A stretch of DNA of 64,000 nt from a virus (IMGVR_UViG_3300021255_000131:47049-111048), one strand, 5' to 3'. Positions 3,106 to 40,966 are shown, counted from the stretch's first letter. Numbers and translations are program-made. The notes: generated from the sequence alone by a model not told the origin.

Positions 3106-3609
3106 TTATTGATGTAGTTTGGGTTTAGCATTGGACGACGTGAGATGATAGAAATGATCATCCCGCGTCAGGATCTCTGACATCAGAGGTTTCTTTTCCC
3201 AGAAAGCTTTGAGCCTGGCGAAGCCCTGGTCGGCCACCCTGCCAATATCCGGATCGGGCACGCGCTTGATGAAGAGCGCGGGCCCTGTCTGATAGCCGGA
3301 AATATCGCACGGGAACCAGAACAGTCCGCCTTCCGGGTAGTATTTGCGCATCTTCTTGTTCTTGCGCCGGCCTGTTTGATACATCGTATCCCGCGTGCGG
3401 TAGCAGGAGAGAAAATCGATCATCTCCTCATGCCCGGTCAGCGTGGTGACAAGGACCTTCGGCATGGCGCCCAAGGTATTGTCCGGCTGAACGACGCGCC
3501 AGGGGGCGCGGCTTTCCGCCGTGCCCCTGGTTTTGCAGAGCACGTAAGAGGGAACGATGTTGCCTTTGCGCATATCCGTTTTCTTTACAATGGCGAGGTA
3601 GTAATACAT
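3106..3609 (-). CDS. Hypothetical protein (167 aa)
   Basis: ORF with AGGAGG RBS overlapping the end of the RNAP gene. Confidence 0.7.
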   Translation of the reverse strand: MYYYLAIVKKTDMRKGNIVPSYVLCKTRGTAESRAPWRVVQPDNTLGAMPKVLVTTLTGHEEMIDFLSCYRTRDTMYQTGRRKNKKMRKYYPEGGLFWFPCDISGYQTGPALFIKRVPDPDIGRVADQGFARLKAFWEKKPLMSEILTRDDHFYHLTSSNAKPKLHQ

Positions 3610-6404
3610 ACTTCCTCCTTGCGGCGCAGACGTTCTTTGACTTTGCTGGCGCGTTTAACAAGCTTCCTGTGCTTCGCCTGGCATTCCGGGCAGCGCTTTT
3701 GCCGACCATTGAGCCGGTGGCACCACTTGCCGCACTCGACACAGGTGAAGAACCCTTTGACTGCGGCGGAACAGCCGTGCTCTTCCGTCCAGACGGGCAG
3801 CTTTATGCCGCAGTGAACGCAGGTAACGCAAGTCATGAGATTCAGCTTGAGATTGCGTAATGCAATGTCTCCAAACACACGCCAGAACATTTGCTTATGC
3901 GCGGCTTTATCTTTTCCGTCGCCGACGAACAGGGTGTACGCGATGGACGGATACGCGGCTTCAATGCTGCCGCACAGCTCAGTGAGCTTATCTGTAATCA
4001 GTTCTTTGAGCGCCTCATAGCCGAAGGCGTTGTACATTTCCATAACGTCCATCATGGACGCTCCGTCAATTCTGGATTGCAGATTGCTGTCATCGAGCCG
4101 GGAAAAAAGTTCAACGGCTTCTGTGTTGATCTCCGTGACCGGAGCTTCCAGAAACATCTCGCCGTTGAAGGGTGGAACGCCTACTGCGTTTAAGTTGATG
4201 TTGCCGATATTATCAAATAAAGCGCAAAGCCTGTTCATGGTAGAATTGTTGGCTTTCGCGCACTGCTTCTTCTTTTTCGTCGTGTCTGCATGGCGGCCGT
4301 TCTTGGAGAACTGGAACCAGTAAGGCATCTTACCGTTCGGGCCGCCGATTGCTTTATTGATTTTCGCAGAGACTTCCGGATAATTGGTATAACCGTTGAC
4401 GGAACCTGTTTTGGCCCCGTCGATCGTGAGATTGTTGAAGTAACACAAAAGCGCGGCAGACTGTAAATCAGGATGCGGTCTGTTCCAAAGCCTGGTCAGG
4501 GCGTTTGAAATCTGGCCGATGCCACTGTAGTCATGCGCGCGCTTGACCCCGTGAAACAATGTTTCAAGGGAAATCTGTTCGGACGCGGCCTTGGTCGCGT
4601 CATAGAACAGGGGAACGATATCATACTCTTGAATGTTTCGCTTGGCGTTGTCGATCAGAATACGGTCTGAGACAACGTTGAGCTGATCTCCGTCTACATC
4701 GAACTGAAGAATTCTTGATATCAGATCATGACAGCTGGTGTAAATGCCGTTCGTGTAAAACCACGAGGCGATTTCCGGATCGTGATTGACGGTGCGAATC
4801 GCATGCTCGTTGAAAAGATGCGGACTCCTTAGAACATCTACCTCGTCTACATCCCTGAACGGACGGGCAAAGACTTCGCCGTTTTTCAACAAACCTTCCG
4901 GCTCCTTCTGACCGAGAAACCAGTATTGGCAAGCGGCATACAGATCCGGAATGGCAAACAGGCGTTTGTTTTTACAGCGTATTTTGCCGGACTTGGCGTC
5001 GAGCGTCCAACGCTTTTTGATTGCCTTCAAAGACTCTCTGGAATAAGCTTCGCGCAACAGCTCCGGATATAAAGTAAGCGCCTGACGATACGGGACTTCC
5101 GAATAATCGTCGGCGCCGAGCGCGTGAAGCATGTGTTCCCGGTCGTTCGAGAGGCTTTTGATCCGATCGTAGGTAGGCCTGACAAACTCCTTCAGCTCAT
5201 TCTGTGGAAAATTTTGAAGCGTTTGAATGAACTGATAGTTGAGCTCGCTGTTGCCAATGTACGCCTCTTCCATGTTGGTGCGGCCAAATGTACAGCCGCA
5301 GGTCTTGAAGAAGGATTTGTACTCATCCCAGCTGTCGTAGTACTTCCACAGCTTGAGTTGTGACTTGGTGAAGACGACCTGTATGTCTTCCGCGCGGAGA
5401 TCGTGCATCTGACCCCAGACGTCTTTCAGCTTTGCCTCGCAGCCGTTTTCCTCGCAGAAGCGTAGAAAATTAAAACTGCACAATAGGCCCTTTAAAAATG
5501 GACCTCGTATCATGAAATTCCATCTGGATACAGAAGGCAGCATCATGCCCGCGCCGTCACAATGGTTGATAACGACGGTCCGTTCGCCGCGCTCGATGGT
5601 GTAATCCGGACTGATATAATCCATCAGGCCGGTGACGGGAGCTTCAAAGTCGTCCACGACGATGCAGCGGTCAATATCGAGCGGGTAAGGATCCGTTGCC
5701 GAGCATGGCAGGGCCAAATACGCCATGAGCTTACTCGTATTAATTCCACCCCGTTCGTTGATGCGCTCCCAGCTGAGGCCGCACATAATGCGCGGCTCGA
5801 TTCTTGACCAGGCGTCGTCTGAGAGAAACTGCACCTTGTCCGTTCTGAGCTGGCCGGCCGAAGCCGTAGAAAAGCGATAGCGTTTGACGGAAACGGAGCC
5901 ATCCTCGTTCAGCACAGACATATTAAAACCCTGAAGGATGATCTGTCTTAAGATATCTTCTGATTTCCACTTGATGATAATCTTGTCGAAGGTGATGTCG
6001 TTTTCGTTCAGGCCGAGGGCGCGGGTTTCTTCTGATACGAACTCGGCGATGCGGCGGTTGGGTTTGAGCGTTTTCCACGTGACGCCCGGCGGGCGTTCTG
6101 GAAGCGTTGGATCGAGGACGGCGCTGAGATTCACCGTCCGGGGGACATGCTCGTGCGAAGCGATGAGCTTGGCGAGAGCGTTTTGCTGTACACGTTTTTC
6201 ATTGACGATTTCCTGACGGTTAGGTACGGTATCATTCAGCATGCGTTTCAAACGGGCGATGTTGAAGAAAATCACGCGCTCCTCGTCAGTCAGCAGATCG
6301 TACGTAGAGAAACTTGCGAGGCGGATTTGACTGCTCAGATAAGATTTGTTACTCGTGAAACCACCTCTTTTGAAAAGTAAAGCGGCATGTGCCGCTGGGT
6401 GCAT
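3585..6404 (-). CDS. Single-subunit two-barrel DNA-dependent RNA polymerase (YonO-like), RNAP-1; true start uncertain, possibly ~6356
   Basis: SAGQLRT, HCDGAGM...FMIRGPFLKG, VLRSPHL, catalytic QFDVDGD (4686-4700), C-terminal CxxC Zn ribbons. Confidence 0.88.
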   Translation of the reverse strand: MHPAAHAALLFKRGGFTSNKSYLSSQIRLASFSTYDLLTDEERVIFFNIARLKRMLNDTVPNRQEIVNEKRVQQNALAKLIASHEHVPRTVNLSAVLDPTLPERPPGVTWKTLKPNRRIAEFVSEETRALGLNENDITFDKIIIKWKSEDILRQIILQGFNMSVLNEDGSVSVKRYRFSTASAGQLRTDKVQFLSDDAWSRIEPRIMCGLSWERINERGGINTSKLMAYLALPCSATDPYPLDIDRCIVVDDFEAPVTGLMDYISPDYTIERGERTVVINHCDGAGMMLPSVSRWNFMIRGPFLKGLLCSFNFLRFCEENGCEAKLKDVWGQMHDLRAEDIQVVFTKSQLKLWKYYDSWDEYKSFFKTCGCTFGRTNMEEAYIGNSELNYQFIQTLQNFPQNELKEFVRPTYDRIKSLSNDREHMLHALGADDYSEVPYRQALTLYPELLREAYSRESLKAIKKRWTLDAKSGKIRCKNKRLFAIPDLYAACQYWFLGQKEPEGLLKNGEVFARPFRDVDEVDVLRSPHLFNEHAIRTVNHDPEIASWFYTNGIYTSCHDLISRILQFDVDGDQLNVVSDRILIDNAKRNIQEYDIVPLFYDATKAASEQISLETLFHGVKRAHDYSGIGQISNALTRLWNRPHPDLQSAALLCYFNNLTIDGAKTGSVNGYTNYPEVSAKINKAIGGPNGKMPYWFQFSKNGRHADTTKKKKQCAKANNSTMNRLCALFDNIGNINLNAVGVPPFNGEMFLEAPVTEINTEAVELFSRLDDSNLQSRIDGASMMDVMEMYNAFGYEALKELITDKLTELCGSIEAAYPSIAYTLFVGDGKDKAAHKQMFWRVFGDIALRNLKLNLMTCVTCVHCGIKLPVWTEEHGCSAAVKGFFTCVECGKWCHRLNGRQKRCPECQAKHRKLVKRASKVKERLRRKEEVCITTSPL

Positions 6405-11847: not shown

Positions 11848-11848
11848 A

Positions 11849-12339: not shown

Positions 12340-12396
12340 ATTTGCTCCTTCATGAATCGTGTTGTTAGAAAAGATCTCCTTCGTGATATCCGGCGT

Positions 12397-12693: not shown

Positions 12694-12707
12694 TGTTACC
12701 TCCGAAA

Positions 12708-12781
12708 TAGGGCTTCTTGGACTCGAACCAAGGACCTGCGCTTTATAAGAGCGCTGCTCTGACCTGCTGAGCTAAAGCCCC
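12708..12781 (-). tRNA. tRNA-Ile(UAU)
   Basis: Cloverleaf GGGGCTTTAGCTCAGCAGGTCAGAGCA-GCGCT-CTTATAA-AGCGC...GGTTCGAGTCC-AAGAAGCCCTA; anticodon TAT. Confidence 0.9.
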
Positions 12782-12784
12782 GGA

Positions 12785-12855
12785 CTGAGGCGGCGGGAGT
12801 TGAACCTGCGATGCGGGAGTCAAAGTCCCGTGCCTTACCGTTTGGCGACGCCTCA
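12785..12855 (-). tRNA. tRNA-Gln(UUG)
   Basis: TGAGGCGTCGCCAAACGGTAAGGCA-CGGGA-CTTTGAC-TCCCG...GGTTCAACTCC. Confidence 0.9.
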
Positions 12856-12934
12856 ATAAAAAGAGCCTGCGTGCCGAACCTATAGCACGCAGGCTTGCGC
12901 AGAAAGGATTGCTGACTTGTTTCACATCAGCAAC

Positions 12935-13010
12935 TGGTGGAGACTGGCGGAATTGAACCGCCGGCTTCCTGCTTGCAAAGCAGGCGCTCTGCTAACTGAG
13001 TTAAGTCCCC
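12935..13010 (-). tRNA. tRNA-Ala(UGC)
   Basis: G3:U70 acceptor pair, CCTGC-TTTGCAA-GCAGG anticodon arm, encoded CCA end. Confidence 0.93.
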
Positions 13011-13110
13011 ACGTGCACCGGTTAGATTATAGCGCCCAAACCGGTGCCAAAACGACGTACAGAAGTGCCGGTCATGACTCCGGCATACTGCCCCCTGTAA
13101 GGCAGCATCT

Positions 13111-13180
13111 TAGACCCTGCCTGACTCGAACAGGCGCATAAGCCATACTCGCTTCGCTCTGCCAACTGAGCTAAGGATCC
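13111..13180 (-). tRNA. tRNA-like element with aberrant anticodon arm
   Basis: Intact acceptor stem, D arm (TAGCTCAGTTGGCAGAGC) and T arm (GCCTG-TTCGAGT-CAGGC); 4-bp anticodon stem with non-canonical loop GAGTATG. Confidence 0.65.
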
Positions 13181-13431
13181 ATATGCGCGTAAACCTCACC
13201 GATGTAAACCGCGCCGCTGCGTTCTTACGTCTGCCGACTTCTTCGCTTTTGCTCCATTAGCAGATCAAACGTCAGCTTTAACCGCTTCTCTCTTGTGCGG
13301 AGGTTTTGTTTGCAACGCTGCAAACAAGGTGTGGGATTGGATCAAAGGCAAGACTAATTGCGCAACCCAAGCCTTCTGTTCCAACGGCGTTGCGCGTGAG
13401 CTGCGCCATTTTCCGGCAGCTCGTCCCGACG

Positions 13432-13504
13432 AGGCCCCTGCGTGACTTGAACACGCGACAAGCTGGTTAACAGCCAGCTGCTCTGCCAGCTGAGCTAAGG
13501 GGCC
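13432..13504 (-). tRNA. tRNA-Asn(GUU)
   Basis: GGCCCCTTAGCTCAGCTGGCAGAGCA-GCTGG-CTGTTAA-CCAGC...GTGTTCAAGTCAC. Confidence 0.9.
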
Positions 13505-13507
13505 ATG

Positions 13508-13723
13508 TTACAGCATTTGAAAAAATTCGGATTCTTCTACGGGGGCGCACAGATAATCGAAATCGTCGTCTTCGACCCAATACTTGCCACCGGGGCCGTC
13601 AACAAAGATGTTACTGCCATTGACCTCCAGGACCGTGCCGATCCAGCCCGTTTTTGTAATCGAATAATAAACCGACGCTTTTTCGTTGCCGACGACCTCG
13701 TCGCCTATAGAAAATTTAGGCAT
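13508..13723 (-). CDS. Small SH3/KOW-like protein, EFxxML family
   Basis: FSIGDEVVG...ESEFFQML*; AAAGGAG RBS. Confidence 0.8.
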   Translation of the reverse strand: MPKFSIGDEVVGNEKASVYYSITKTGWIGTVLEVNGSNIFVDGPGGKYWVEDDDFDYLCAPVEESEFFQML

Positions 13724-13895
13724 AGAAGACTCCTTTCAAAAAAGATCTCGCCCGGGGACGTAAGTTATTGTGGAACCGTCCCCGGACTTGCAGTCACACT
13801 GCCATGGCCTGTTTATCCTGCGGCATTTATGGACTGTGCCGTAAACCTCGCGTTGCATCCGAGCTCAACGCATGCTCTGAAAGGAGGTAATCACA

Positions 13896-13959
13896 TGGCT
13901 CCCTGCCCGAGTCGAACGGGCTATTCCAATATGGCGTGTCGTCGTAACACTATGGGAGC
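13896..13959 (-). tRNA. Truncated tRNA-like element with collapsed anticodon arm, ending in CCA
   Basis: GCTCCC/GGGAGC acceptor pairing, GTGT..ACAC D stem, GCCCG-TTCGACT-CGGGC T arm; only CCA-TAT-TGG in the anticodon position. Confidence 0.55.
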
Positions 13960-14216
13960 ATGGCGGTGAATTCCTCTATGTCGACATCATTATATGGCGA
14001 AAAATACTCATCGTGCGTTAATTGAAAAGTCTTTCCGTTGGCCCAGCGGTAGCAATATTCGCCGCAGTCATACCTTAAGAATACGACGGGATAATTCGTT
14101 TCGTCCAGCAGCATCCTGGCGAAGCCAGGGTTCATACCTTCTCCTCTGGAGGTGCGTCTACTGGCCGCGCATTCGCGGCCGTAGTCGTTAAGGATCAAAA
14201 GATCTCCTGTTTCCAT
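13950..14216 (-). CDS. Small SH3/KOW-like protein, EFxxML family
   Basis: METGDLLIL...IEEFTAMLP*. Confidence 0.75.
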   Translation of the reverse strand: METGDLLILNDYGRECAASRRTSRGEGMNPGFARMLLDETNYPVVFLRYDCGEYCYRWANGKTFQLTHDEYFSPYNDVDIEEFTAMLP

Positions 14217-14225
14217 ACAAACTCC

Positions 14226-14498
14226 TTATAGCAATTTTAAAAAATCATCTTCAGCAGCCTCTTCGACGTACGGTATGATATAATGACCTTCGAGCCCCAG
14301 ACAATAATATGAGCCTATGTGTTCTGCCAATTCAAAGCACCCATCTTGCACTTTGGTGATCATCAGCGGCTTTCCGTTGGCGAAATCTCGTCCGAGTTTG
14401 AGTTTTTCCGCTGAAAAACTGCTCATGTAAATTTGTCTGACGTGAGCTGCTTCTTCCGGTTTTACTACAACCATATCGCCAACTTTTAATTTTTCCAT
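14226..14498 (-). CDS. Small SH3/KOW-like protein, EFxxML family (start reassigned to 14498)
   Basis: GGAG RBS then MEKLKVGDMVVVK...EDDFLKLL*. Confidence 0.75.
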   Translation of the reverse strand: MEKLKVGDMVVVKPEEAAHVRQIYMSSFSAEKLKLGRDFANGKPLMITKVQDGCFELAEHIGSYYCLGLEGHYIIPYVEEAAEDDFLKLL

Positions 14499-14821: not shown

Positions 14822-15226
14822 TTAGCCGAACGGGAACTCGTCGGGCTCCTCGGTCGCGGGAGCGGGAGCCGCGGGGGCTTCCTCGCCGTCACGCTTCTGC
14901 GCAGACAGGAACTCGAAGTTCTGGATGACGTTGATTTCGGGGCTGGCACGCCAGGACCCATCCTGCGTGGACTGATAGACCGACACCTTCAGCGGGCCTT
15001 CGACGAGCACCTGGGTGCCCTTCTTCAGGTACGGAGCGGTGTTGGTGGCCTGATTGCGCCACATGGTGCAGCGGACATAGGTGACGGGGCGCTGGCCCTG
15101 TTCGTCACGGCGGCCGGAGTTAGCGGCGACGGTGAATGTGCACACGGGCGTCTGCACGCCAGAAACATTGCGGTTGACCAGCACAGCGTCATTGGTCAGA
15201 TGTCCTACGATGGTGAGCTTATTCAT
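14822..15226 (-). CDS. ssb: Second single-stranded DNA-binding protein
   Basis: MNKLTIVGHLT, FTVAAN, YLKKGTQVLVEG; tail PDEFPFG. Confidence 0.92.
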   Translation of the reverse strand: MNKLTIVGHLTNDAVLVNRNVSGVQTPVCTFTVAANSGRRDEQGQRPVTYVRCTMWRNQATNTAPYLKKGTQVLVEGPLKVSVYQSTQDGSWRASPEINVIQNFEFLSAQKRDGEEAPAAPAPATEEPDEFPFG

Positions 15227-15397
15227 GTGATACCTCTTTCTGCCCGGCTAACGGGCGTGATCAATATTGGCGTAAGCCGAAGTTTTAGAACCTGTAGCAG
15301 GTTCAAAATATATCGTTTAGCGCCGGAGCATTCGTCTGCAGCGCTTAACGAGCGTATTTGCCGGCCGCGGAAATTGTTTTCTTTTCCCGCAAACCTT

Positions 15398-15428
15398 TCA
15401 TCATGGCTGCGGCCCGTCCCCGGGCCGC
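15398..15428. promoter_or_regulatory. Hairpin motif A, copy 1
   Basis: TCATCATGGCT-GCGGCCCG-TCCC-CGGGCCGC; seven covarying copies between 15.4 and 19.1 kb. Confidence 0.6.
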
Positions 15429-15461
15429 CCTGCTGGCGTAAAGACCAGCTGGGGAGGGGCG

Positions 15462-15641
15462 TCAGGCTTTCAATAAGCCGGTCGCAGGAAGCGGCGCTTT
15501 CTCGCCGAGATATTTGCTGAGCGTTCTGGCGATCTTGAGCCACGCTTCTCTGTCGTGTTCTTCCCTGGCGATCTTGTTGAGCACGCAGCCCATCGTCGGG
15601 TCGAGCTGCTTGGAGCCGTTGTAATACAAGCTTTTATCCAT
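15462..15641 (-). CDS. Small hypothetical protein (59 aa)
   Basis: AAAGGAG RBS, MDKSLYYNG... Confidence 0.65.
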   Translation of the reverse strand: MDKSLYYNGSKQLDPTMGCVLNKIAREEHDREAWLKIARTLSKYLGEKAPLPATGLLKA

Positions 15642-15673
15642 ACGACAATCTCCTTTCAGGCTACGTAAACCTT

Positions 15674-15704
15674 TCATCCTGGCTGCGCGGCGTCCCCGCC
15701 GCGC
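15674..15704. promoter_or_regulatory. Hairpin motif A, copy 2
   Basis: TCATCCTGGCT-GCGCGGCG-TCCC-CGCCGCGC. Confidence 0.6.
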
Positions 15705-15810
15705 CCTGCTGGCGTAACAACTGCCGGGCAGCGAAAATAAAGCACTTGTGCCGGCTTTCTATGGTTAAAAAAGTGAACTTAAAATGCGAAAAATGTAACA
15801 GAAATTTAAC

Positions 15811-15839
15811 TTGACAGCGATTTTTCGCGGCAGTATAAT
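15811..15839 (+). promoter_or_regulatory. Consensus sigma70/sigmaA promoter, antisense to the early arm
   Basis: TTGACA-17 bp-TATAAT with an A-rich UP region. Confidence 0.8.
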
Positions 15840-15855
15840 GGAATCCCGAGAAAAA

Positions 15856-15885
15856 CCACCATGGTGCCGCCCGTCCTCGGGCGGC
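15856..15885. promoter_or_regulatory. Hairpin motif A, copy 3
   Basis: CCACCATGGT-GCCGCCCG-TCCT-CGGGCGGC. Confidence 0.6.
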
Positions 15886-15992
15886 GTTGCCAAGAAGATA
15901 GAAACGAGCCAAGCAAGAACAGTGAACATTAGCTTGGCCGGCTTAAGGCGAGATATGGTTATAAACATGTATAATCTGGTACCAGAAAATAC

Positions 15993-16020
15993 TGTCGACA
16001 TTCAAGAATCGATATATATG
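15993..16020 (+). promoter_or_regulatory. Phage-specific promoter-like motif B, copy 2
   Basis: TGTCGACATTCAAGAATCGATATATATG-GAAAG. Confidence 0.65.
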
Positions 16021-16587
16021 GAAAGAGAAGCCCAAAACGCAGAAGTACGCGAATCGCGTGAAGCGCGATTCGCCTGATAACTACACGACGGTTAAAAGAT
16101 AACCGAAGTGAAGCTGACAGGACGGCATTGAATAAAGCGTCGTTCCCATGGAAGGAACGACGCGCTGAAACAGTGAAAACTTAGGCTTGAAGAGAAACGC
16201 AGGACCTGCATAACAGGACCTGCAATGAAAAATATCTCCCGTCGCCCATGGAAGGCGACGGGAGGGTGATGAAGATAACATGTCTAAAGAAAGAAAAGAA
16301 CCTCGAAGCTGACACGCTGAAGTCAAAAGAAAGAAACGAACTTTCTTTCTTTTCAGGCACGATGAAGATAACTACAGAGGGTAGAGAGATAACACCTCCT
16401 CGATATAGGAATAAAAAAGGAATCAAAAGGACAAAACTGTGAAAGAACTACTCGTGCTTCTGAGTAAACACAAGATATTGTATCCGATTCCCCTCCTTTC
16501 TACTACATCTTGATATATCTCCAATATTGCTGATATATCACCTCTTTTCCTGTTATCGTTCGGCATGGTTTTAAGTTAGCAGTGTAA

Positions 16588-16625
16588 ATAGGGGAGCGCC
16601 GGTGAAGCGCTCCCCTTATTTTTTA
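16588..16625 (+). terminator. Rho-independent terminator, possibly bidirectional
   Basis: GGGGAGCGC/GCGCTCCCC stem followed by TTATTTTTT. Confidence 0.7.
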
Positions 16626-16925
16626 CATATGCACGTCGTAGCCTTTCAGCCAGTCAGGATTCACCGCCATTGTATCCGCTAACACGGTGAACTTGTCATC
16701 TTTCGGGCAGTACTTTTCATGTTCGTAGTTGTAGACATCCTGGTATGAAATTCTGATGCCGGATCCGTTGGCTTTCAGGTTTGCCATTTTGACGAGCTGT
16801 ATTCTGGACATGGGCTTACCGTCAACACCGTGCATCGTTCTCCACTGGATAGAGCGTTGGCCGAGCGTAGCAACTTTGTGGGTGGACACTCTGCGATAGG
16901 CTACCGAATTGTAGGGATACATCAT
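16623..16925 (-). CDS. XRE-type helix-turn-helix protein
   Basis: SRIQLVK...ISYQDVYNYEHEKYCP...LADTMAVNPDWLKG. Confidence 0.72.
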   Translation of the reverse strand: MMYPYNSVAYRRVSTHKVATLGQRSIQWRTMHGVDGKPMSRIQLVKMANLKANGSGIRISYQDVYNYEHEKYCPKDDKFTVLADTMAVNPDWLKGYDVHM

Positions 16926-16940
16926 AATACGTTTCCTCCT

Positions 16941-17351
16941 TTACGGGCGCGGCAGTGATACTGCGTTCCATTCACGGGCAAGAGACTCGCCTTTGGCTTT
17001 CGACCAGATATAGCCTATTAGCCGGCTGTCGTTGGTAGCATGGTTGGTCCAGCCGACACGATACGCTGATTCGGGCATGATGGCGTGATCATACTTGCCG
17101 ATTTCACGGACGTCTCCTTCATCGAAGACGATCTCGTGAAACACGGGCTTGAAGATTGTACGATCGTACTTGTTATCGGCGTGCGATGGGAACTGGATGA
17201 ACATCGATCTGTCATTGACGATCTGCGTGCGGTATTCGGTGTCACTGACCTTGTGAAATTCACCAAGTCCTTTTGCTCCGGACATTGCTGTGACGATACT
17301 CATCACGTCCGGTTCATCAATCTCTGGTACGACGACTACTTTTCTCTCCAT
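16941..17351 (-). CDS. Hypothetical protein (136 aa)
   Basis: AAAGGAG RBS; ORF in the regulator cluster. Confidence 0.72.
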   Translation of the reverse strand: MERKVVVVPEIDEPDVMSIVTAMSGAKGLGEFHKVSDTEYRTQIVNDRSMFIQFPSHADNKYDRTIFKPVFHEIVFDEGDVREIGKYDHAIMPESAYRVGWTNHATNDSRLIGYIWSKAKGESLAREWNAVSLPRP

Positions 17352-17382
17352 AAAAAACTCCTTTCAAACCTGAAGTTAAATA

Positions 17383-17414
17383 TCATCATGGTCCCCGCCC
17401 GTTTCCGGGCGGGG
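17383..17414. promoter_or_regulatory. Hairpin motif A, copy 4
   Basis: TCATCATGGT-CCCCGCCCG-TTTC-CGGGCGGGG. Confidence 0.55.
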
Positions 17415-17429
17415 CAGTGAACAGCCTCG

Positions 17430-17777
17430 TTACGGACGATTGTAGCGCGCGGTGCTGACTTCCGCGACGCGGCGGGTGACGATGAGTTTGCTGGATCCAT
17501 AGCCGCAGAGCCAGGACGTGCTGACGCCCATGACCTTGCACAGGACGGTCATGTTGTTCATCTTCGGCGTGCAGCGGTTGTGCACGTACGAGTTGATGAT
17601 GGACTTGCTGAAGTTGACGCCGTAGTGGCGGCCATAGACGTTGCAGGCCCTGGTGAGCTCCGCCTGCGTCGTGCCGGTCTGGATGAGCCAGGCCTTGATG
17701 CGATCACCGATATACTCGGTGCGTTTGGTGTAACCGTGTTCCATCTTCTGCCACGAGCAACTGTAAGGCTTATTCAT
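17430..17777 (-). CDS. XRE-type helix-turn-helix transcriptional regulator
   Basis: IGDRIKAW...TQAELTR...SKSIINSYVHNRCTP...LCKVMGVSTSWLCG. Confidence 0.82.
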   Translation of the reverse strand: MNKPYSCSWQKMEHGYTKRTEYIGDRIKAWLIQTGTTQAELTRACNVYGRHYGVNFSKSIINSYVHNRCTPKMNNMTVLCKVMGVSTSWLCGYGSSKLIVTRRVAEVSTARYNRP

Positions 17778-17812
17778 GTGTGTTACCTCCCAAGATTATT
17801 GAAGTGATGACT

Positions 17813-17842
17813 TCACCATGGCGCCGCCCGTCCTCGGGCGGC
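17813..17842. promoter_or_regulatory. Hairpin motif A, copy 5
   Basis: TCACCATGGC-GCCGCCCG-TCCT-CGGGCGGC. Confidence 0.6.
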
Positions 17843-17950
17843 ATTCAGCATCAGCCTGCTGAACCAGGCTTCGAACGGTCAACAGGCATGTTACGAGAAA
17901 AAATATAGGGCCCCGCAAAAATAGGGGACCCTCATACATAGACGGTGTGC

Positions 17951-18418
17951 TTACTTAACGGGCGTCACTTCGATCAACTGTAGTTTCGCCAGATCACGCT
18001 GGGCGCAGGCTTCCTCGTCGCAGCGCTCGTTCAGGGGATGACCGGCATGACCCTTCACTTTAGTGAAGGTAACCTGATGGATGTCAAGCTGGTTCTTGAG
18101 CGCGGTCCAGAGATCGACATTCTGGACAGGCTTCTTATCCGCCTTGACCCAGTTGTTGGCGATCCACTTGTCTAAGTAGCCGCCGTTGATCTGGTCGACG
18201 ATATAGGCCGAGTCCGTGAGGACTTCAACTTCACAGGGAAAATGGAGCTCCTTGAGGCCGCGCACGACGGCTCTCAGCTCCATGCGGTTGTTGGTGGTCT
18301 GTGGGCTATTGCCGGAGACCATCATTTCACGGTCTTGACACTGCAGGATCGCGCACCAGCCCCCGGGGCCTGGATTGCCGGAGCACGCGCCGTCTGTAGC
18401 GATGGTCACGTGATACAT
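17951..18418 (-). CDS. rnhA: Ribonuclease HI
   Basis: TDGACSGNPGPGGW, TTNNRMEL, TDSAY, NVDLW, VKGHAGHPLNERCD. Confidence 0.96.
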   Translation of the reverse strand: MYHVTIATDGACSGNPGPGGWCAILQCQDREMMVSGNSPQTTNNRMELRAVVRGLKELHFPCEVEVLTDSAYIVDQINGGYLDKWIANNWVKADKKPVQNVDLWTALKNQLDIHQVTFTKVKGHAGHPLNERCDEEACAQRDLAKLQLIEVTPVK

Positions 18419-18430
18419 AAGATGTCCTCC

Positions 18431-18601
18431 TTAACGAAAATCGCGGCGGACCCTTTGCGGGTGCCGCCGCTTGTTGTAATTGAGACGCCAGCGCGGGAAG
18501 CGCTGACGCAGATTCCAGATGGCTTCAGTAGATTCGAGCCAGATGATGTCGCCGAGGATCAGGATGGTCAGGGCGGCGACGATGATGAACAGCGTCAGCA
18601 T
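18431..18601 (-). CDS. Small membrane protein (56 aa)
   Basis: Manual translation MLTLFIIVAALTILILGDIIW...basic tail; GAGGTG RBS. Confidence 0.6.
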   Translation of the reverse strand: MLTLFIIVAALTILILGDIIWLESTEAIWNLRQRFPRWRLNYNKRRHPQRVRRDFR

Positions 18602-18753
18602 TTAGTCACCTCTTCGATGACGACGAAGCTGAAGCTTTCGCAGCGGCCCATTGTGGTGACCCAGTCATAACGAAGCTCGGCGTTGTGTCTGGTTTCGTCA
18701 TAACCGTGAATAATGAATCTACCGTCGGACAGATACTCGATGACTTTGAACAT
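18595..18753 (-). CDS. Small hypothetical protein (52 aa)
   Basis: AAGGAGG RBS; MFKVIEYLSDGRFIIHGYDE... Confidence 0.6.
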   Translation of the reverse strand: MFKVIEYLSDGRFIIHGYDETRHNAELRYDWVTTMGRCESFSFVVIEEVTKC

Positions 18754-18919
18754 ATACAGATCCTCCTTCTGCATTGCAATAAAATAAGCGCTGTGTGGCC
18801 AGCGCTAACCCCGGCGAGGCTTTTCGGGTCACCGATCCCGCTGCGGTTTATCGCGGTACGCAGGATATACCGGAAGAGCCTTACGTCTTCAGCCCGGTTG
18901 GCCAAAGGCGTAAAACTAT

Positions 18920-18950
18920 TCATCATGGCCGCGCGCCGTCCTCGGCGCGC
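18920..18950. promoter_or_regulatory. Hairpin motif A, copy 6
   Basis: TCATCATGGCC-GCGCGCCG-TCCT-CGGCGCGC. Confidence 0.6.
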
Positions 18951-19025
18951 ATCTTGGGATACATTTTGCCGGAGAGTGACGATGCACAAACACCGCACAG
19001 ACCGGACAGGAGTGCAATAATGCAT

Positions 19026-19056
19026 TCGCCATGGCCGCGCGGTGTCCCCAACGCGC
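19026..19056. promoter_or_regulatory. Hairpin motif A, copy 7 (one mismatch in stem)
   Basis: TCGCCATGGCC-GCGCGGTG-TCCC-CAACGCGC. Confidence 0.5.
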
Positions 19057-19535
19057 TTAGCTTGGAAGTGAAGACGTCCAGCAACGCTCATAAATTGTAA
19101 GGATAGAAAGACGTCATCATAGAGGCAGGCAAGAATATGGGGAAACGCGGAGAGCTGGATCAGCCTGCATAAATTATGCAGAAAATTCGACAGGAATCAC
19201 GCTTCAGCACCCGGAGACAGCACGCAGATGAAAACAGCGAGATCGGGAGGTGGCGGAGCGGAGGCGAAGCCGAAGCGGAGCCCGTGAAGCGCAAAGCGAC
19301 GACACGGGATACGGGACCGACAGACGCAGCACCCGGAAGCAAGCTTGAGAGTGAACCCAAGTAAGCAATGCGAAGCGAAGGCCGGCGAAGCCGTGACGCA
19401 GCGGAGCGAGCGAAGCGGGAAAAATATGGGGCCCGGAAAAAAGGGGAGGCCCGCTCGTGGTGCAATGCCTGTCTTGACGGCGCAGGCAGGGCCGGAGCAG
19501 TTTAACGACGTGCTCAGGTCGGCTTGACTTAATGA

Positions 19536-19652
19536 TTAATCTGTGCTATCATCGGGCTGGAGGTACTCACGGTATTCTTCTTCTGTCGCGAAGAGAATCC
19601 ACTCGTCACCAACGAGCCCCATGTAGCCGCTTGCGGTGGAGTAGCCGTACAT
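19536..19652 (-). CDS. Small phage protein (38 aa)
   Basis: AAAGGAGG RBS; MYGYSTASGYMGLVGDEWILFATEEEYREYL. Confidence 0.7.
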   Translation of the reverse strand: MYGYSTASGYMGLVGDEWILFATEEEYREYLQPDDSTD

Positions 19653-19762
19653 GGAGAACCTCCTTTCCGCCGGATGTTGCTGCATCCGGCTTATTTTATT
19701 TTGAGCCTGGGGCTCACTCGCAGGCCGCAACGCGGCGGCCCGTGGTGTGAGACTCAGACGAA

Positions 19763-20986
19763 TTACAGGTCGTCAGCGACGCAAAGAGAATAAAGAGAAT
19801 TATATGGATCAACTGCTGCCGCTTTGCTGTCGTAAAGATAACGCCATTCTTCTTTCTCAGTACAGCCGCTCATTTCGACATAATAACTATCGTTGCGTAC
19901 ATATTCGTCTCTGATGTAGTAAGAACGACCGTCGACGCAGATTTCAAACGGCTCACCCTCGAAGAAATATCTGTCTTCAGGTTTGAAGGATTTCAGAAAA
20001 GAATCCAATATTTCTTCAAGTTCGTCGGACAGATCGATGTCGCAATGAGTCCACGATTCTTTCAGAGAAAAGACATGAAAGATCGCGTTCAATGCATAAT
20101 CTTTATTTGCTTTGTCGAAGTTAAAAGAATGCACTTCGACATAGCTCTGATTGCGAGAATCGGTATTTTCAAGCATGCTGAACGTAATCATTGCAACGTG
20201 GGCTTTATTCAGCTCGCTGAAGTACTTGACAGCCTTTTCCTTGGTCGCATAGCGCAGATCCATATAACCGTCTAGGATCCGATCATCCACGCGAACAATG
20301 TGATACAGGCCATCCGGGTCCTGGTCAAGGAACGAAGCGTCTTCAATGAGATCAAGATTGATCGCTTCTTCAACGGACTGTTCCTGTACAGGCTCAATGC
20401 TATCGACAGCATCCATGTCATCAATGGCGTCGTTCATTTCGTCGATCGCTGCGTCGATGTCAATGTCAGGCGTTTCGGATTCCGGCATAGGCGCGACGCC
20501 CGCTTTTGGGGCGGGCGTCGGCTGGAGCTGGTCAGCATGGATGCTGTAGCCGGCCCACTTCGGGCCGCAGTTGTCGGCGGTGACGATCTGGCCGTCCCGG
20601 CTCAGGAACACTGGATAGCCGGCATGCAGACCATGCACATAGATCGTGGCGGCTTCCATGGAGTTGTTCGTCGTCTTGCTATAAACACGGCGGCCGGTCT
20701 TGATCTTGACTTCGTAGATGTGGGCGAAGCATACGCCGGTGATAGCCTGGGTGAGGGACATAGTGTAGTTCGCGGGGTTGGCGGTGTAAACATGGCGTCC
20801 TGTCTTAGTCGTCAAGATGACGCAGGCACGGATTACGGACGGTTCGCCGTCAGTGCCATACTCGATCATGACTCGGTCTGATTTGATCAACTGATCCATC
20901 TGGCGATACGCCTCCATAACGGAAGGCAGGTCATTCATAACGATTTTAATACCGTATTTGTTGTTATAGCCGATGCTGATAGACAT
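19763..20986 (-). CDS. Hypothetical early protein with acidic linker (407 aa)
   Basis: AAGGAGG RBS before ATG at 20986. Confidence 0.75.
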   Translation of the reverse strand: MSISIGYNNKYGIKIVMNDLPSVMEAYRQMDQLIKSDRVMIEYGTDGEPSVIRACVILTTKTGRHVYTANPANYTMSLTQAITGVCFAHIYEVKIKTGRRVYSKTTNNSMEAATIYVHGLHAGYPVFLSRDGQIVTADNCGPKWAGYSIHADQLQPTPAPKAGVAPMPESETPDIDIDAAIDEMNDAIDDMDAVDSIEPVQEQSVEEAINLDLIEDASFLDQDPDGLYHIVRVDDRILDGYMDLRYATKEKAVKYFSELNKAHVAMITFSMLENTDSRNQSYVEVHSFNFDKANKDYALNAIFHVFSLKESWTHCDIDLSDELEEILDSFLKSFKPEDRYFFEGEPFEICVDGRSYYIRDEYVRNDSYYVEMSGCTEKEEWRYLYDSKAAAVDPYNSLYSLCVADDL

Positions 20987-21219: not shown

Positions 21220-24033
21220 TCAGAAGTCCATCCCAGCCAGCCAGGAAGGTAATGCTGCCTTCCTGGCCTTTTCTTCGTGCGCTTCAACGCATTCCTGGCG
21301 GAACGTCTTCTCCGGAATAACGGCGGGCAGTATGGTACGCTCCTGTTTGTTTTCAGCGAGGATATCGCCGAAGCACTCCAGAATCGCCATCAGGTGACGC
21401 GCGGCGAACTTCTTGTTCCATTTGTCGTGGGCATGCGCCACATGCTGACGCAGAATCGCGGCGGCAGTCCAGCGAGCCAGCTCGTCGTCGGACATGTTGC
21501 CCTTATTGACACCTTGCATGAACGCAAGCGTCTCGTCGCGGACGTACTTGTAAGCGCTCAGCATTGCCTCTTCGTATTCAGCCGCTTCAAACGACGCTTT
21601 CGCGATCTTCTGGACTGCGCTGCTCAAAGTTTCGAACAAGAAGTAGATCGAATATTTTGTGTCTGCTGCGAAGACCTCCTTGCCGAGCATGTCGTTGTAT
21701 TCCTTGACCTTTTCAGCAGGAAGCACGTCGTTGCGCACCATGCGCACGTTTGCGCTGCAGCCGCCAGGCATCGCGATTTCCCAGCGGTAATCGATCTTAC
21801 TGAAGTCCGGCGCCCACTCGGAACCGCCGATGATCAGGTTGACCTGGTGGCCGAACCGATCTACGATGGACTCTGATTCGGGCAGGGTTTTCTCGTCCCA
21901 TCTCTGGTCGTTCCAAGGAGTTTCATCACAGTGTTTTGCAAACCGCTGGTTGTAAGGCATCGCGTTATAGTTTTGCCCGACGGTGCGAGCGATTTCCCGG
22001 AGCGCCTGCGGAAGCACGCCCGTCTTGATGTAGTCCAGAATCAGGATGGTCAGCACGTGCGGGATCGCCGCAGTTTCCAGGATGCCGCTGATGACGGAAG
22101 GATCCATGTCGATCCTGCAATCGTTCAGGATCTTGGTGCAGAGGTTGGAGTAGACGCCAACCTCGTTGTACCGTTCAGCGTCGATCATCATCTGAGCAGT
22201 CTGATTCTGCCACTCGTCCGTCTTGGGCAGCTTGCCCTTGGGTGCTTTGTCGTGGTCGAAGATCACGCAGGGCGGATTGACGCGATTGATGACTCGCTCC
22301 ATCAGGGAGACGAGCAGCGGATTCGAGGACCAGAAGCCCTCGTCTCCGTCGTTGTCACCGTCCCAGTAGCCGGACAGAACAGTGCTGTTCCACGGCAGGA
22401 TCATCATGTTGCCGCAAACGGCGAGCTCATCGTGCACCTCTACGTGAAGCACACGAGCGTTCAGCAGGTTGGCGGGATGGCGAATACCATAGATTTTCCG
22501 GCCATTTTCTACGCCGGTGACGCAGCAGGTCTTGCTGCTGTTGAAGACGCCGATCTTCTCCTTGGCCGGGTCCTTGCCAAAGACCCAGACGTCGATCAGG
22601 GCGTAGGGGTCCATAGCAATATATTCATAATGAGATTCTTCGATTGCAGGCGAGATCATTGCGTCTGCGTACTTGTTGTTAAACAGGTCTTCCAGGTGGT
22701 TGATGATGTCTTGATTTGCCACATAGTCCGGGAAAGCGCGGAAGAACTTGGCGGCGTTGCCGCATTCCTCCTCGTCGGCCCAGGGTTTTTGTAGTTCCTT
22801 TACACAGCCTTCAACTGTTTTCAGCTGCTTTACGCAAATGGCCTTAGACGTACCGAGCTTCCTAAGCTCGGCGTTGCTGGTGTAGACCAGCTCCTGCAGC
22901 GCCTGGCGGGAGAGATTTCGTTTGTCGCCTTCTGCCTTGTTGGCGAAGCCGCACACACGCAGCTCATCGATGCCGAGGGTTTCGAACGTGGTCCGATAGT
23001 CGTCGAGGCTATCAAACCATTTGAGGCCTTTGCAGCACGACTCGCTGAGAATGATATAGATACCATCAGTCGAGCGCCAAATGCCCTGATAATCTTTGAT
23101 CTTATCCGGTATATTCTCGACGATGGCGACGACGGCCATTGTCTTGTTGGTGCCGAGGCGACCCTGAAGGGAGAGGAAATTCTTGGTATCCTCGAGGCTA
23201 CGAGCGATGATTACGGACTGACCGTCGGCGATTGTTGCGTCCTCTTCGGATTCGGGAACGTATTTGATTGCGCCGGTTTTGGCGTCAATTTTCAACACGT
23301 TGGTATACTTCAACTGCCAGTTGAAGTCCTTAACGATGATCGCGTTCTTCAACGCTATCTTCTTCAAACCAAACCGACTGACCGGCACGCTGCCGGAGAA
23401 CAGCGTGCTAAGTACTTTGTTGTATTCTACGGGGTTGGTGCCCCTGTCGAACTGCTCCTTGGTGCGGAGCAGCGCGAGCTCCTTCTTGTATTTGGCCTGA
23501 ATGTCGACGCGAATAAGAAGAGATTTGCCGACCTTCAGGTAGGAAGGCGTTGAACACAAGTATTTCCAAACAAGCTGGCCAGACTGGATGCCCAGCTTCT
23601 GCAGGTTCTTGCCGACCTGCTTTTTGATTTGGCCGACAAGGAAGAAATATTGTTTTGCTTGATCCGCTGTGAAGTGGATTTCACAATTGAATTTCAGAAG
23701 GTTGTATAAGTGGTGTTCGAGTACGACGACGCTGTCGTCGAATTTATCGTACTCAATGTGGAGCATATCAGCTCCAGCGGATTCATCCATTGTAATGACC
23801 TTGGGGTCATCAATGGAAATGGTGTAGGGAACGGTGCGCTCCCGCTCCAGCTTCAGGATTTGCTGGGCGGCAGAGATCATTTTCTGGCAGATGTTGTCTT
23901 TCGAGTATAACGCTTTATTGAAGATGTCTGTCTCTTCCTTCGGGAAGAAGGCGGCCTGGCTGAAGGACCAGGTCATATAATGTTGTTTATTCAGGGCGGG
24001 AGCTTCAATGGCGCGTTCGATAACCTTAGACAT
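21220..24033 (-). CDS. Second single-subunit two-barrel RNA polymerase, RNAP-2 (937 aa)
   Basis: IADGQSV...LQGRLGTNKT, GIRHPAN, catalytic WDGDNDGDEG (22342-22356), VGVYSN. Confidence 0.8.
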   Translation of the reverse strand: MSKVIERAIEAPALNKQHYMTWSFSQAAFFPKEETDIFNKALYSKDNICQKMISAAQQILKLERERTVPYTISIDDPKVITMDESAGADMLHIEYDKFDDSVVVLEHHLYNLLKFNCEIHFTADQAKQYFFLVGQIKKQVGKNLQKLGIQSGQLVWKYLCSTPSYLKVGKSLLIRVDIQAKYKKELALLRTKEQFDRGTNPVEYNKVLSTLFSGSVPVSRFGLKKIALKNAIIVKDFNWQLKYTNVLKIDAKTGAIKYVPESEEDATIADGQSVIIARSLEDTKNFLSLQGRLGTNKTMAVVAIVENIPDKIKDYQGIWRSTDGIYIILSESCCKGLKWFDSLDDYRTTFETLGIDELRVCGFANKAEGDKRNLSRQALQELVYTSNAELRKLGTSKAICVKQLKTVEGCVKELQKPWADEEECGNAAKFFRAFPDYVANQDIINHLEDLFNNKYADAMISPAIEESHYEYIAMDPYALIDVWVFGKDPAKEKIGVFNSSKTCCVTGVENGRKIYGIRHPANLLNARVLHVEVHDELAVCGNMMILPWNSTVLSGYWDGDNDGDEGFWSSNPLLVSLMERVINRVNPPCVIFDHDKAPKGKLPKTDEWQNQTAQMMIDAERYNEVGVYSNLCTKILNDCRIDMDPSVISGILETAAIPHVLTILILDYIKTGVLPQALREIARTVGQNYNAMPYNQRFAKHCDETPWNDQRWDEKTLPESESIVDRFGHQVNLIIGGSEWAPDFSKIDYRWEIAMPGGCSANVRMVRNDVLPAEKVKEYNDMLGKEVFAADTKYSIYFLFETLSSAVQKIAKASFEAAEYEEAMLSAYKYVRDETLAFMQGVNKGNMSDDELARWTAAAILRQHVAHAHDKWNKKFAARHLMAILECFGDILAENKQERTILPAVIPEKTFRQECVEAHEEKARKAALPSWLAGMDF

Positions 24034-40952: not shown

Positions 40953-40966
40953 GCCTTGACGAAGCC

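Follow-up and report, generated by a model that had tools for sequence, protein, structure and literature searches.

The window, a stretch of 64,000 nucleotides from the 111,048-bp genome of an uncultured gut phage, carries two minus-strand genes for polymerases of the YonO family (Table 1). Over 80% of its length, RNAP-1 is 36.8% identical to SPbeta YonO (E 1e-123), while RNAP-2 matches YonO with an E-value of 1e-10 across the DNDGD site. A DFDGD motif was also present at residue 903 of the tape-measure ORF (5918 aa). The large ORFs scanned were of the YonO type or structural, and no T7/N4-type polymerase was found among them; a PF00940 search of the 111-kb genome gave no match, which was equally the case for the control genomes.

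Downstream of the RNAP-2 operon and past a conserved non-coding stretch of about 600 nt, after which c7 is the first copy, a hairpin motif recurs within 3.7 kb. The earlier note had described seven copies of it, all in one orientation, intergenic and upstream of minus-strand genes. All seven were located between minus-strand genes, and the count is exactly seven genome-wide. In the sense of the genes, each element has a G+C stem of 8-9 bp whose arms enclose an RRRA loop; 1-2 nt after the second arm comes the box CCAKGRTG, and then a purine. Read on the plus strand, all copies show YCAYCMTGG and 1-2 nt followed by the hairpin, with loops TCCC, TCCT or TTTC and an invariant closing G-C pair. The flanks of c1 and c2 are near-identical to each other. 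An independent gene caller, applied to the near-identical contigs L124 and L125, called no gene in the motif regions and did not call the 161-aa ORF that spans c6 and c7. Genes for SSB and RNase H and long non-coding stretches lie near the cluster, and the copies precede early/middle genes. Low-depth metatranscriptome contigs exist for this phage; they resolve neither starts nor strand.

Table 1. Hairpin elements and neighbouring features (window coordinates; predicted starts are those of the promoter model; bits, covariance-model score).
Feature	Position	Strand	Element	Box	Predicted +1	Bits	Remarks
RNAP-1	3585..6404	-					true YonO orthologue; Pfam RdRP PF05183, invariant DxDGD
c1 hairpin	15409-15428	-	15398..15428	CCATGATG (15406-15399)	A 15398	50.9	stop of 59-aa gene 18 nt upstream; SSB start 182 nt downstream
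c2 hairpin	15685-15704	-	15674..15704	CCAGGATG	A 15674	45.5	RBS-supported ATG 15641/15642 about 42 nt downstream
sigma70-type promoter	15811-15839	+					perfect; faced by c3
c3 hairpin	15866-15885	-	15856..15885	CCATGGTG	G 15856	46.7	interval to c2 gene-free
sigma70-like site	15998-15971	-					weak, 9/12 match
terminator-like sites	16137-16163, 16236-16264, 16590-16616						followed by c3 and c2
c4 hairpin	17393-17414	-	17383..17414	CCATGATG	A 17383	45.0	9 bp; gene-sense loop GAAA; ATG 17351 41 nt downstream
HTH regulator gene	17430-17777						inside the cluster
c5 hairpin	17823-17842	-	17813..17842	CCATGGTG	A 17813	49.8	45 nt upstream of ATG 17777 (HTH regulator); terminator-like/AT-box element (hairpin and T-tract) about 50 nt upstream
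161-aa ORF	18606-19091						spans c6 and c7
terminator-like hairpin	18806-18787						between c6 and ATG 18754
c6 hairpin	18931-18950	-	18920..18950	CCATGATG	A 18920	49.8	ATG 18754 176 nt downstream
c7 hairpin	19038-19057	-	19027..19057	CCATGGCG	A 19027	46.5	one G.A mismatch
RNAP-2	21220..24033	-					divergent member of the YonO family; lies immediately upstream of the cluster

Hairpins of this kind are rare in the phage: only eight perfect hairpins in the 111,048-bp genome combine a 4-nt loop with a stem of 8 bp or longer that is 70% G+C or higher, and six of the eight are copies of the motif. A covariance model was built from the seven copies and one copy in the relative L123, and the search that the earlier note had proposed was run on the genome and 17 related loci. 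Motif copies scored 45-51 bits and the next best match 14 bits, no further motif being detected in the rest of the genome. The eight sequences had 98.4% of stem cells paired (71% when shuffled), with six of the eight pairs changed on both sides. This was extended to 16 sequences by adding to the seven copies nine from three related virus contigs (four genomes): 97.7% of stem cells were paired, with 33 compensatory double changes and no one-sided change. In neither set did any of 500 shuffles equal the observed value. The earlier note's claim that the stems differ while pairing, closing pair and 4-nt loop are largely kept was borne out. No G.U/G.T wobble pair was found in the 128 stem cells of the 16 sequences despite the 33 double changes, as expected if pairing is needed in DNA. 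Across the same 16 sequences, the invariant positions were the closing pair, the final base of the loop and, within the box, C-C-A, G and G; the box T was present in 15, and the base after the box was always a purine (13 A, 3 G). Folded as single-stranded DNA, six copies reached -12.1 to -14.6 kcal/mol (z about -4), c7 being weaker (-8.5 kcal/mol, z -1.4).

The geometry of a 20-bp palindrome is operator-like, an HTH regulator is encoded within the cluster, and the nearby SSB and RNase H genes and non-coding stretches would suit an origin region. The elements could therefore be duplex-DNA operators, or DNA-level sites apart from initiation such as priming or replication hairpins. Operators, however, conserve their half-sites, whereas here five to six stem positions vary freely with strict compensation, which indicates intrastrand pairing. 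The asymmetric conservation (the loop and a one-sided box) and the single orientation do not fit a symmetric dimer site, and a priming role would itself need a polymerase to initiate at the element. We regard a role as operator or priming site as very unlikely.

Six copies lie 41-52 nt upstream of a start codon. Between hairpin and ATG there are 41-45 nt at c2, c4 and c5 and 52 nt at two copies of the relative G050; analogous elements of the relatives L130 and L136 have 43 and 48 nt. No ORF lies just upstream of c2, c3, c6 and c7, and these four copies are therefore not the ends of coding operons. Apart from the weak match listed in Table 1, no sigma70-like site was found on the minus strand within the cluster. 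This setting bears on the idea that the hairpins are terminators or pause sites of a phage or host polymerase, the hairpin acting without a U-tract and the conserved 3' box serving for release. In keeping with it, c1 and c4 begin 15-18 nt past a stop codon, one G050 copy (M2) lies 25 nt past another, and a 26-nt terminator motif is conserved for the virion polymerase of Thermus phage P23-45 (PMC10770324). That motif carries a T-tract, however, whereas no T/U run follows any of the seven hairpins on either strand, as the earlier note had observed. A terminator scan listed none of the seven copies, and they do not qualify as intrinsic terminators. Moreover, four of the seven have no preceding gene, and the genes downstream would be left without a recognisable promoter. 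As c5 directly follows a canonical hairpin-plus-T-tract element, a terminator function there would be redundant. Termination or pausing is in our judgement scarcely plausible.

Stable G+C-rich intergenic hairpins are also typical of REP repeats, and the earlier note had named a host REP-like repeat unlinked to RNAP-2 among the findings that would count against its reading. In a search of bacterial genomes (185,579 species), none of the first 120 pattern matches listed formed the 8-bp hairpin, none clustered and no record held more than one match; on these matches, the motif is not a REP/BIME-like host repeat. Unlike REP repeats and intrinsic terminators, the elements lack a U-tract, conserve a loop and a 3' box, and are confined to one 3.7-kb phage region. 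Among virus contigs, the true hairpin was confined to relatives of this phage, the cluster recurring as five copies in 3 kb in G050 and three copies at a contig end in G051. Relatives with RNAP-2-clade enzymes have gene-sense families of their own, each with a variable stem, a fixed loop and a fixed 3' box: the loop is ACAGG in L130, TAGG in L136 (three copies) and CAAG in L140 (four copies with four different stems). L131 likewise has its own hairpin-plus-box family.

In the literature, the YonO polymerase family lacks defined promoters (PMC5467207; bioRxiv 10.1101/2020.03.07.982082). For SPbeta, Forrest et al. 2017 mapped the P_YonO start and left the promoter undefined (PMC5467207). We placed the published start, position 2225998 of B. 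subtilis 168, on a genome that is 100% identical over the region; the primer-extension primers of that study bracket it (PMC5467207). The start corresponds to the A in the box TCGGAT|A, and hairpins with unrelated stems stand directly 5' of a TCGGAT box in SPbeta (two copies), L148, L220 and L147. Four of six hairpins fold with z at or below -2.6; the one at the mapped start is weak (-4.7 kcal/mol, z -1.3). We infer from this arrangement that P_YonO may itself be a hairpin promoter, a reading that is our own and unpublished. Both phages encode a YonO orthologue (RNAP-1 here) and share a gene order of polymerase gene, terminator, long non-coding gap, start site(s) and long one-directional operon. 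Both have a variable hairpin, then a conserved box and next to it a purine, which is the mapped start in SPbeta and the predicted one here. The likeness is one of architecture, without sequence similarity: the box is TCGGAT in SPbeta and CCAKGRTG in this phage, the loops are dissimilar, and the hairpins of SPbeta, two in number instead of seven, are weaker and richer in A+T and vary in loop and length. SPbeta YonO also drives late structural genes, whereas the elements studied here precede early/middle genes.

The position and orientation of the elements, their covariation, the box ending at a purine, the families in relatives and the SPbeta architecture lead us to favour the view that the seven elements are probably structure-plus-sequence promoters of a phage two-barrel YonO-family polymerase. 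In this model, initiation would occur at the elements and the hairpin would act as DNA. The 8-9 bp G+C inverted repeat would be recognised as a hairpin, formed either by extrusion from supercoiled DNA or on DNA that is transiently single-stranded. The stem sequence would be free, with the closing G-C pair, the purine-rich loop (RRRA in the gene sense, TYYY in the template) and the distance to the box fixed. The box, 1-2 nt past the stem, would position the polymerase, and RNA would start at the invariant purine adjoining it, so that the genes at 15641, 17351 and 17777 would have 5' leaders of about 30-40 nt. Past terminator-like sites, transcription would be re-started by two tandem pairs, c7/c6 and c3/c2, which together with c1 would head the 44-kb leftward arm. 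If true, the elements would be start signals for an enzyme family without defined promoters.

N4-type promoters depend for extrusion on negative supercoiling and SSB. In all seven copies, predicted folds and covariation indicate a stable hairpin beside a conserved single-stranded start region, as in that class. The N4 early promoters share with the model proposed here a short inverted repeat acting as a DNA hairpin, a start a few nucleotides past the stem, and recognition by shape and a few fixed bases. In the template oligonucleotide of N4 P2, read 5' to 3', the start region comes before the hairpin, which is also the layout of the plus strand here (PMC13492108). The P2 stem, though, has 5 bp, a 3-nt loop and a key -11G, as against 8-9 bp, a 4-nt loop and a conserved 8-nt box in this phage. 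The N4 polymerase is a T7-like single-subunit enzyme, whereas only two-barrel YonO-type enzymes were found here. The comparison with N4 that the earlier note had drawn stands as an analogy of mechanism only.

The main rival to promoters is a cis element acting at the RNA level in read-through transcripts, bound by a phage protein or polymerase for antitermination (nut/put-like), site-specific processing, mRNA stabilisation or translational control; the earlier note had offered RNA processing or antitermination as its alternative. Being in the gene sense, the elements would be transcribed from any upstream start, and the hairpins would form in read-through RNA too, where they would be very stable. 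AT-box elements, which are possible promoters, lie about 50 nt upstream of c5 and about 370 nt upstream of c7. Both c6 and the c5/c4 unit are followed by terminator-like hairpins (at 18806-18787 and 16137-16616, respectively), so that sites conferring terminator resistance would make sense. The gene-sense loops GGGA and GAAA match GNRA, but AGGA, which makes up half of the loops, does not. Nor does the complete lack of wobble pairs suit a family of RNA helices, and 8-bp stems are below RNase III length. The Rfam 15 search of positions 15000-19900 gave no covariance-model match at E <=1. In SPbeta, the analogous hairpin stands 5' of the mapped 5'-triphosphate end and is therefore absent from the RNA.

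The lambdoid nut and HK022 put sites resemble the elements in their short G+C stem, purine-rich loop, linear box, gene-sense orientation and location upstream of terminators. In lambdoid boxB the stem is 5 bp long and the loop, which is GNRA-like, 5 nt, with boxA 5' of the hairpin, and nut sites occur once or twice per operon, just past the promoter. The elements of this phage differ from that plan, with an 8-bp stem, a 4-nt loop and a box 3' of the hairpin. There are seven copies, some in tandem without a gene between them and some at a fixed 41-52 nt from start codons, both of which are typical of promoters and not of nut/put sites. They are not lambdoid nut sites, and no N-like antitermination protein was identified in this phage. 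A function at the RNA level appears rather unlikely.

If the elements are promoters, the question is which polymerase reads them. The earlier note had proposed hairpin promoters for one phage polymerase, likely RNAP-2. The promoter part of that proposal is favoured here; the assignment to RNAP-2 is unsupported, because G050 keeps five near-identical copies of the motif with a non-orthologous 836-aa polymerase at the RNAP-2 position. A search of G050 for an RNAP-2 orthologue gave no match. RNAP-1 is the sole phage polymerase clearly conserved across the motif-bearing genomes whose contigs reach its gene (76% and 79-85% identity). In G059 and G062, complete relatives whose RNAP-1 orthologues share about 51% identity, no hairpin-plus-box family of at least two copies was found. 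We infer that RNAP-1 is the best candidate, with roughly even chances of being the reader; RNAP-2 is a doubtful one, and a tape-measure-fused polymerase or another factor is to be regarded just as tentatively.

P23-45 resembles this phage as a siphophage with a long tail, a giant tape measure that bears a polymerase motif, and free two-barrel polymerase(s) (PMC10770324). Its polymerases gp96 (tape-measure-fused) and gp64 each have their own motif class before pre-early/early genes (PMC10770324). These motifs differ from the elements here in being linear: in one class an A+T-rich box ends at the start, in the other a G+C-rich TCTAGGGGC-type box lies about 9 nt upstream of it (PMC10770324, Supplementary Data 1), and no hairpin is described for them. 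In the phage studied here, a second conserved motif, which is linear (class L, four copies), also resembles a phage promoter and bears on the assignment of polymerases to motifs.

The seven elements reported in the earlier note (c1-c7) were all found at their places. On the minus strand, in gene sense, the order within each class A element is a G+C stem of 8-9 bp with GGGA, AGGA or GAAA as its loop, then the pairing arm, a spacer of 1-2 nt, a box CCAKGRTG and a purine. The whole genome holds eight perfect G+C-rich hairpins (at least 8 bp, 4-nt loop), six of which are class A copies. A covariance model, R1, gave 45-51 bits for the seven copies and for one in the related locus L123, with no other match above 14 bits in the genome or in 17 related loci. 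Nine further copies were found in relatives: five in G050 (105 kb, 95% complete), grouped in a stretch of 3 kb, three at the end of the fragment G051, and one in G053, a variant whose stem has 6 bp and which recurs almost unchanged in G052. In the 16-sequence alignment 97.7% of stem cells were paired, against 69% in shuffles, and 33 cells were changed on both sides while none was changed on one side only; none of 500 shuffles did as well. All 16 copies share the closing G-C pair, the final base of the loop and, in the box, C-C-A, G and G; the box T is conserved in 15 copies, and the base after the box is A in 13 and G in three. As single-stranded DNA the elements fold at -12 to -15 kcal/mol, c7 being weaker. 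The covarying motif is thus confirmed and now numbers 16 copies in four genomes.

Searches of the phage collection with the region (megablast and blastn) returned nothing useful, and a 14-base pattern scan of virus contigs gave 117 single chance matches, none forming the hairpin. The near-identical contigs L124 and L125 (98.6% identity) differ by one substitution inside the motifs, too little for testing selection. Neither a class A match nor a hairpin family was found in G059 and G062, complete relatives with an RNAP-1 (the YonO orthologue of this phage) about 51% identical. The element is not a host REP-like repeat, one of the possibilities that the earlier note had named as fatal to its reading: among the pattern matches listed for bacterial genomes, none forms the 8-bp hairpin. 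The element matched no known RNA family. The box ATGs were also rejected as starts of conserved short ORFs, the frames being 7-19 codons long, unrelated in sequence and devoid of an RBS.

The virus record is complete, at 111,048 bp with terminal repeats of 107 bp; the window makes up its final 64 kb, and the gene content is siphovirus-like. On the plus strand, the structural arm encodes terminase, portal, capsid, Dit and, in the tape-measure position, an ORF of 5918 aa; the minus-strand arm, of about 54 kb, runs leftward from about 26.2 kb. The motif regions are all non-coding in the gene calls of L124 and L125. The hairpin lies 41-45 nt from the ATG in c2, c4 and c5; the corresponding distance is 52 nt for two G050 copies, M1 and M2, whose start codons have a strong RBS. 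That the elements end transcripts, as hairpins of intrinsic terminators do, is unlikely because they lack a U-tract and four of them (c2, c3, c6 and c7) have no ORF upstream. A role as operators is likewise unlikely, since stem sequence varies freely, with compensating changes, and what is conserved lacks symmetry.

Positions of class A copies and associated features (window coordinates unless a genome or contig is named; predicted +1 for c1-c7; the first 14 rows follow the minus-strand arm leftward)
Feature	Position	Strand	Remark
Sigma70-like site	25549-25521	-	
Two small genes, RNAP-2, 407-aa gene, 38-aa gene	21220-24033 (RNAP-2)	-	
Conserved element GGSCCCNATATTTT with T run	19421-19434	-	
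Non-coding C+T-rich DNA			~350 nt
c7, then c6	19027; 18920	-	
Terminator-like hairpin			after c6
Three small genes and RNase H gene		-	
Second GGSCCCNATATTTT element	17900-17913	-	
c5, then HTH regulator gene	17813 (c5)	-	
c4, then two genes	17383 (c4)	-	
Gene-free stretch			~740 nt; three terminator-like hairpins in gene sense
c3, then c2	15856; 15674	-	
59-aa gene		-	
c1, then SSB gene, then remaining 40-odd kb of arm	15398 (c1)	-	
RNAP-1 gene	3585-6404	-	
GGSCCCNATATTTT element in relatives	L123:7195-7225; L127:3868-3900; L130:6450-6500; L140:11975-12010; L295:4915-4945; G062 ~129243		
Other YonO-family lineage at RNAP-2 position	G050 (L295:1478-3988); G059 ~57101-58999; G062 ~125122-126681		
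RNAP-1 gene with insert, G051	L418:2316-5827		after residue 569
RNAP-1 gene with insert, G058	40556-44334		after residue 659
RNAP-1 gene with inserts, G062	19477-23992		gene in three pieces
Sigma70-type promoter	15811-15839	+	TTGACA, 17 nt, TATAAT
Two long hairpins within 15811-16625	16137-16163; 16236-16264	+	both with loop CATGGAA
Strong terminator	16590-16616	+	followed by T run
Second hairpin class	19669-19690; 24145-24167; 26162-26178; L123:1047, 2448, 6950; L121:1102		
tRNA-like sequences	12694-13305	-	
Exact metatranscriptome contigs	11223-14273; 15497-15826; 16268-16418; 16816-17035		first in pieces; second bridging c2
TTCAAGAATSGATATATATG motif	26208-26227; 61758-61777; 16001-16020	+	
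TTCAAGAATSGATATATATG motif	2386-2405	-	
TTCAAGAATSGATATATATG motif in G050	77602; 85301; 101371; 45926		syntenic places

For YonO, the polymerase of Bacillus phage SPbeta, a start site has been mapped to B. subtilis 168 position 2225998, with an unannotated RNA and yonK downstream of it; the promoter was left undefined (Forrest et al., PMC5467207). We used a Bacillus genome that is 100% identical to SPbeta over the region and has matching coordinates. Position 2225998, which falls inside the interval bracketed by the primer-extension primers of PMC5467207, is the A that directly follows a TCGGAT box; a second copy of this box lies 157 nt upstream of the mapped start (L219:1560-1760, B. subtilis 2225809-2226009), where the A equivalent to the start is 2225841. 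An arm of the hairpin at the mapped start falls at about 2225967-2225972. A hairpin directly precedes the box in both SPbeta copies, in L148 (YonO 86% identical), in L220 and in L147, a B. pumilus prophage. The stems are unrelated between lineages, that of the upstream copy being identical in SPbeta and L148; four of the six hairpins fold with z <= -2.6, and the one at the mapped start is weak. The SPbeta gene order (polymerase, terminator, small gene, 1.7-kb gap, start site, long operon) matches the order in this phage. With its hairpin, TCGGAT box and A, the one experimentally mapped start of the family therefore shares the class A architecture of variable hairpin, short box and purine start, which suggests that the undefined YonO promoter is of the hairpin-plus-box type. 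Across 72 prophage loci with YonO homologues, a search for hairpin-plus-box families gave 11 forward vs 7 reverse, which is noise, and a k-mer search of the Paenibacillus group yielded no common box. Such prophages probably carry one or two promoters each.

Contigs with enzymes of the RNAP-2 clade (25-32% identity) have gene-sense families of their own, each with a variable stem, a fixed loop and a fixed 3' box: L130 (loop ACAGG), L136 (TAGG, three copies), L140 (CAAG, four different stems) and L131 (several copies, box ending in TG, then a purine). For several of these copies, a start codon with an RBS follows at 43-94 nt. Such families fit a recognition element that co-evolves with a phage-specific protein. 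The most likely function of class A is that of a hairpin-type promoter of a YonO-family polymerase, which we consider reasonably probable and which predicts exact start sites. The part of the earlier proposal that saw hairpin promoters for one phage RNAP is thus favoured by the SPbeta architecture and the families in relatives; its assignment to RNAP-2 is not. The main alternative is that the elements act in the RNA, in antitermination, processing or stability; the SPbeta hairpin lies outside the transcript. RNase III was rejected as a processing enzyme because stems of 8 bp are too short for it.

If class A is a promoter, which polymerase would read it? RNAP-1 is clearly orthologous to SPbeta YonO (36.8% identity, E 1e-123) and also matches Pfam RdRP. 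RNAP-2 belongs to the same PHROG; its alignment to YonO spans the DNDGD catalytic site (E 1e-10), and DxDGD is invariant among RNAP-1, RNAP-2 and the RNAP-2 homologues. The tape-measure ORF has a DFDGD motif at residue 903. Comparing its N-terminus by profile against the RNAP alignment gave no significant match (probability 0.5%), and the evidence for a polymerase domain there consists of this motif and a short shared segment. A search for related loci with RNAP-2 as the sole query returned none. The suggestion that RNAP-2 was the likely reader is not supported: G050 retains class A almost unchanged and has no RNAP-2 match, an 836-aa polymerase of another lineage occupying that position. Nor was a homologue of the tape-measure polymerase domain detectable in G050. 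RNAP-1 identity is 76% in G050 and 79-85% in G051, and class A is absent from genomes with RNAP-1 at about 51-56%. Since RNAP-1 is conserved at 76-85% together with class A, while RNAP-2 and the tape-measure domain were not found in G050, this correlation makes RNAP-1 the best candidate reader. Its gene, however, lies downstream of the elements on the same strand.

The regulatory DNA flanking the RNAP-2 position is nearly identical between G050 and L123, and the replacement at this position looks like a polymerase module swap. RNAP-1 orthologues are split by inserts of about 0.3-1 kb at differing places, which could be introns, inteins or homing-endonuclease insertions.

Small two-barrel RNA polymerases, such as YonO, crAss-like phage gp66 and P23-45 gp64 and gp96, are related to cellular polymerases and eukaryotic RNAi polymerases. 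To our knowledge, little has been published on how they find start sites; we know of no promoter motif for gp66 (phi14:2), which reportedly prefers single-stranded templates, and of hairpin promoters only for the N4 polymerase, which is unrelated to the YonO family. We found no published description of a hairpin promoter for a two-barrel phage polymerase. The hairpin-plus-box element, with its clear covariation, amounts to a promoter model that can be tested directly and that predicts the exact start nucleotides; its natural covarying copies supply ready-made compensatory mutants, and it suggests a way of re-examining the SPbeta start site. Tentatively, YonO-family polymerases, SPbeta YonO included, may generally use a hairpin of arbitrary stem and a lineage-specific box ending at the start purine. 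If so, hairpin recognition by this family would be convergent with that of the N4 virion polymerase and would fit the template preference of gp66, and the 16 covarying copies would be the first natural data set defining such a promoter. Confirmation of the promoter model would mean that two unrelated polymerase superfamilies had each evolved structure-specific promoter recognition on their own, and would provide an orthogonal polymerase/promoter pair. For the tandem copies beside the SSB and RNase H genes, a further role in priming replication is conceivable.

Other features accompany the elements. In all relatives examined, the GGSCCCNATATTTT element, often in tandem and with a T run and C+T-rich repeats after it, comes immediately after the "position-2" polymerase operon; it is kept even at 26-32% polymerase identity, and in G050 and G062, where the polymerase at that place is of a different lineage. 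The element recalls the terminator-plus-A+T-rich-promoter units seen in Thermus phage P23-45 (PMC10770324 Supplementary Data 1) and could be a promoter, a terminator or both. Non-coding DNA at 19061-19640 shares 81% identity with L123, against only about 52% for the proteins of L123, which suggests selection on the DNA or RNA itself. The perfect sigma70-type promoter on the plus strand points into about 780 nt without ORFs, closed by the strong terminator, and its predicted start overlaps that of c3 head-on; this stretch may encode a non-coding RNA and be a case of promoter interference. In a second hairpin class, read in gene sense, a stem of 8-9 bp with a 5-7 nt loop comes after an A-tract and leads straight into an RBS and start codon; the opposite strand reads as a classic intrinsic terminator.

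RNA matches to the stretch were only Logan contigs of gut metatranscriptomes covering parts of it; these are blind to starts, ends, strand and level and may include DNA carry-over, and contig limits and gaps were not used as evidence. At the tRNA-like sequences, metatranscriptome contigs of other organisms accumulate through conserved tRNA parts. Finally, a linear motif of about 35 nt, with the core TTCAAGAATSGATATATATG then GAAAG, occurs four times, always oriented like the genes that follow it, with a start codon 22-60 nt further on. Copies stand before the structural arm and Dit and after the Sak gene, and one sits inside the hairpin cluster on the plus strand; the motif is probably a second phage promoter class.
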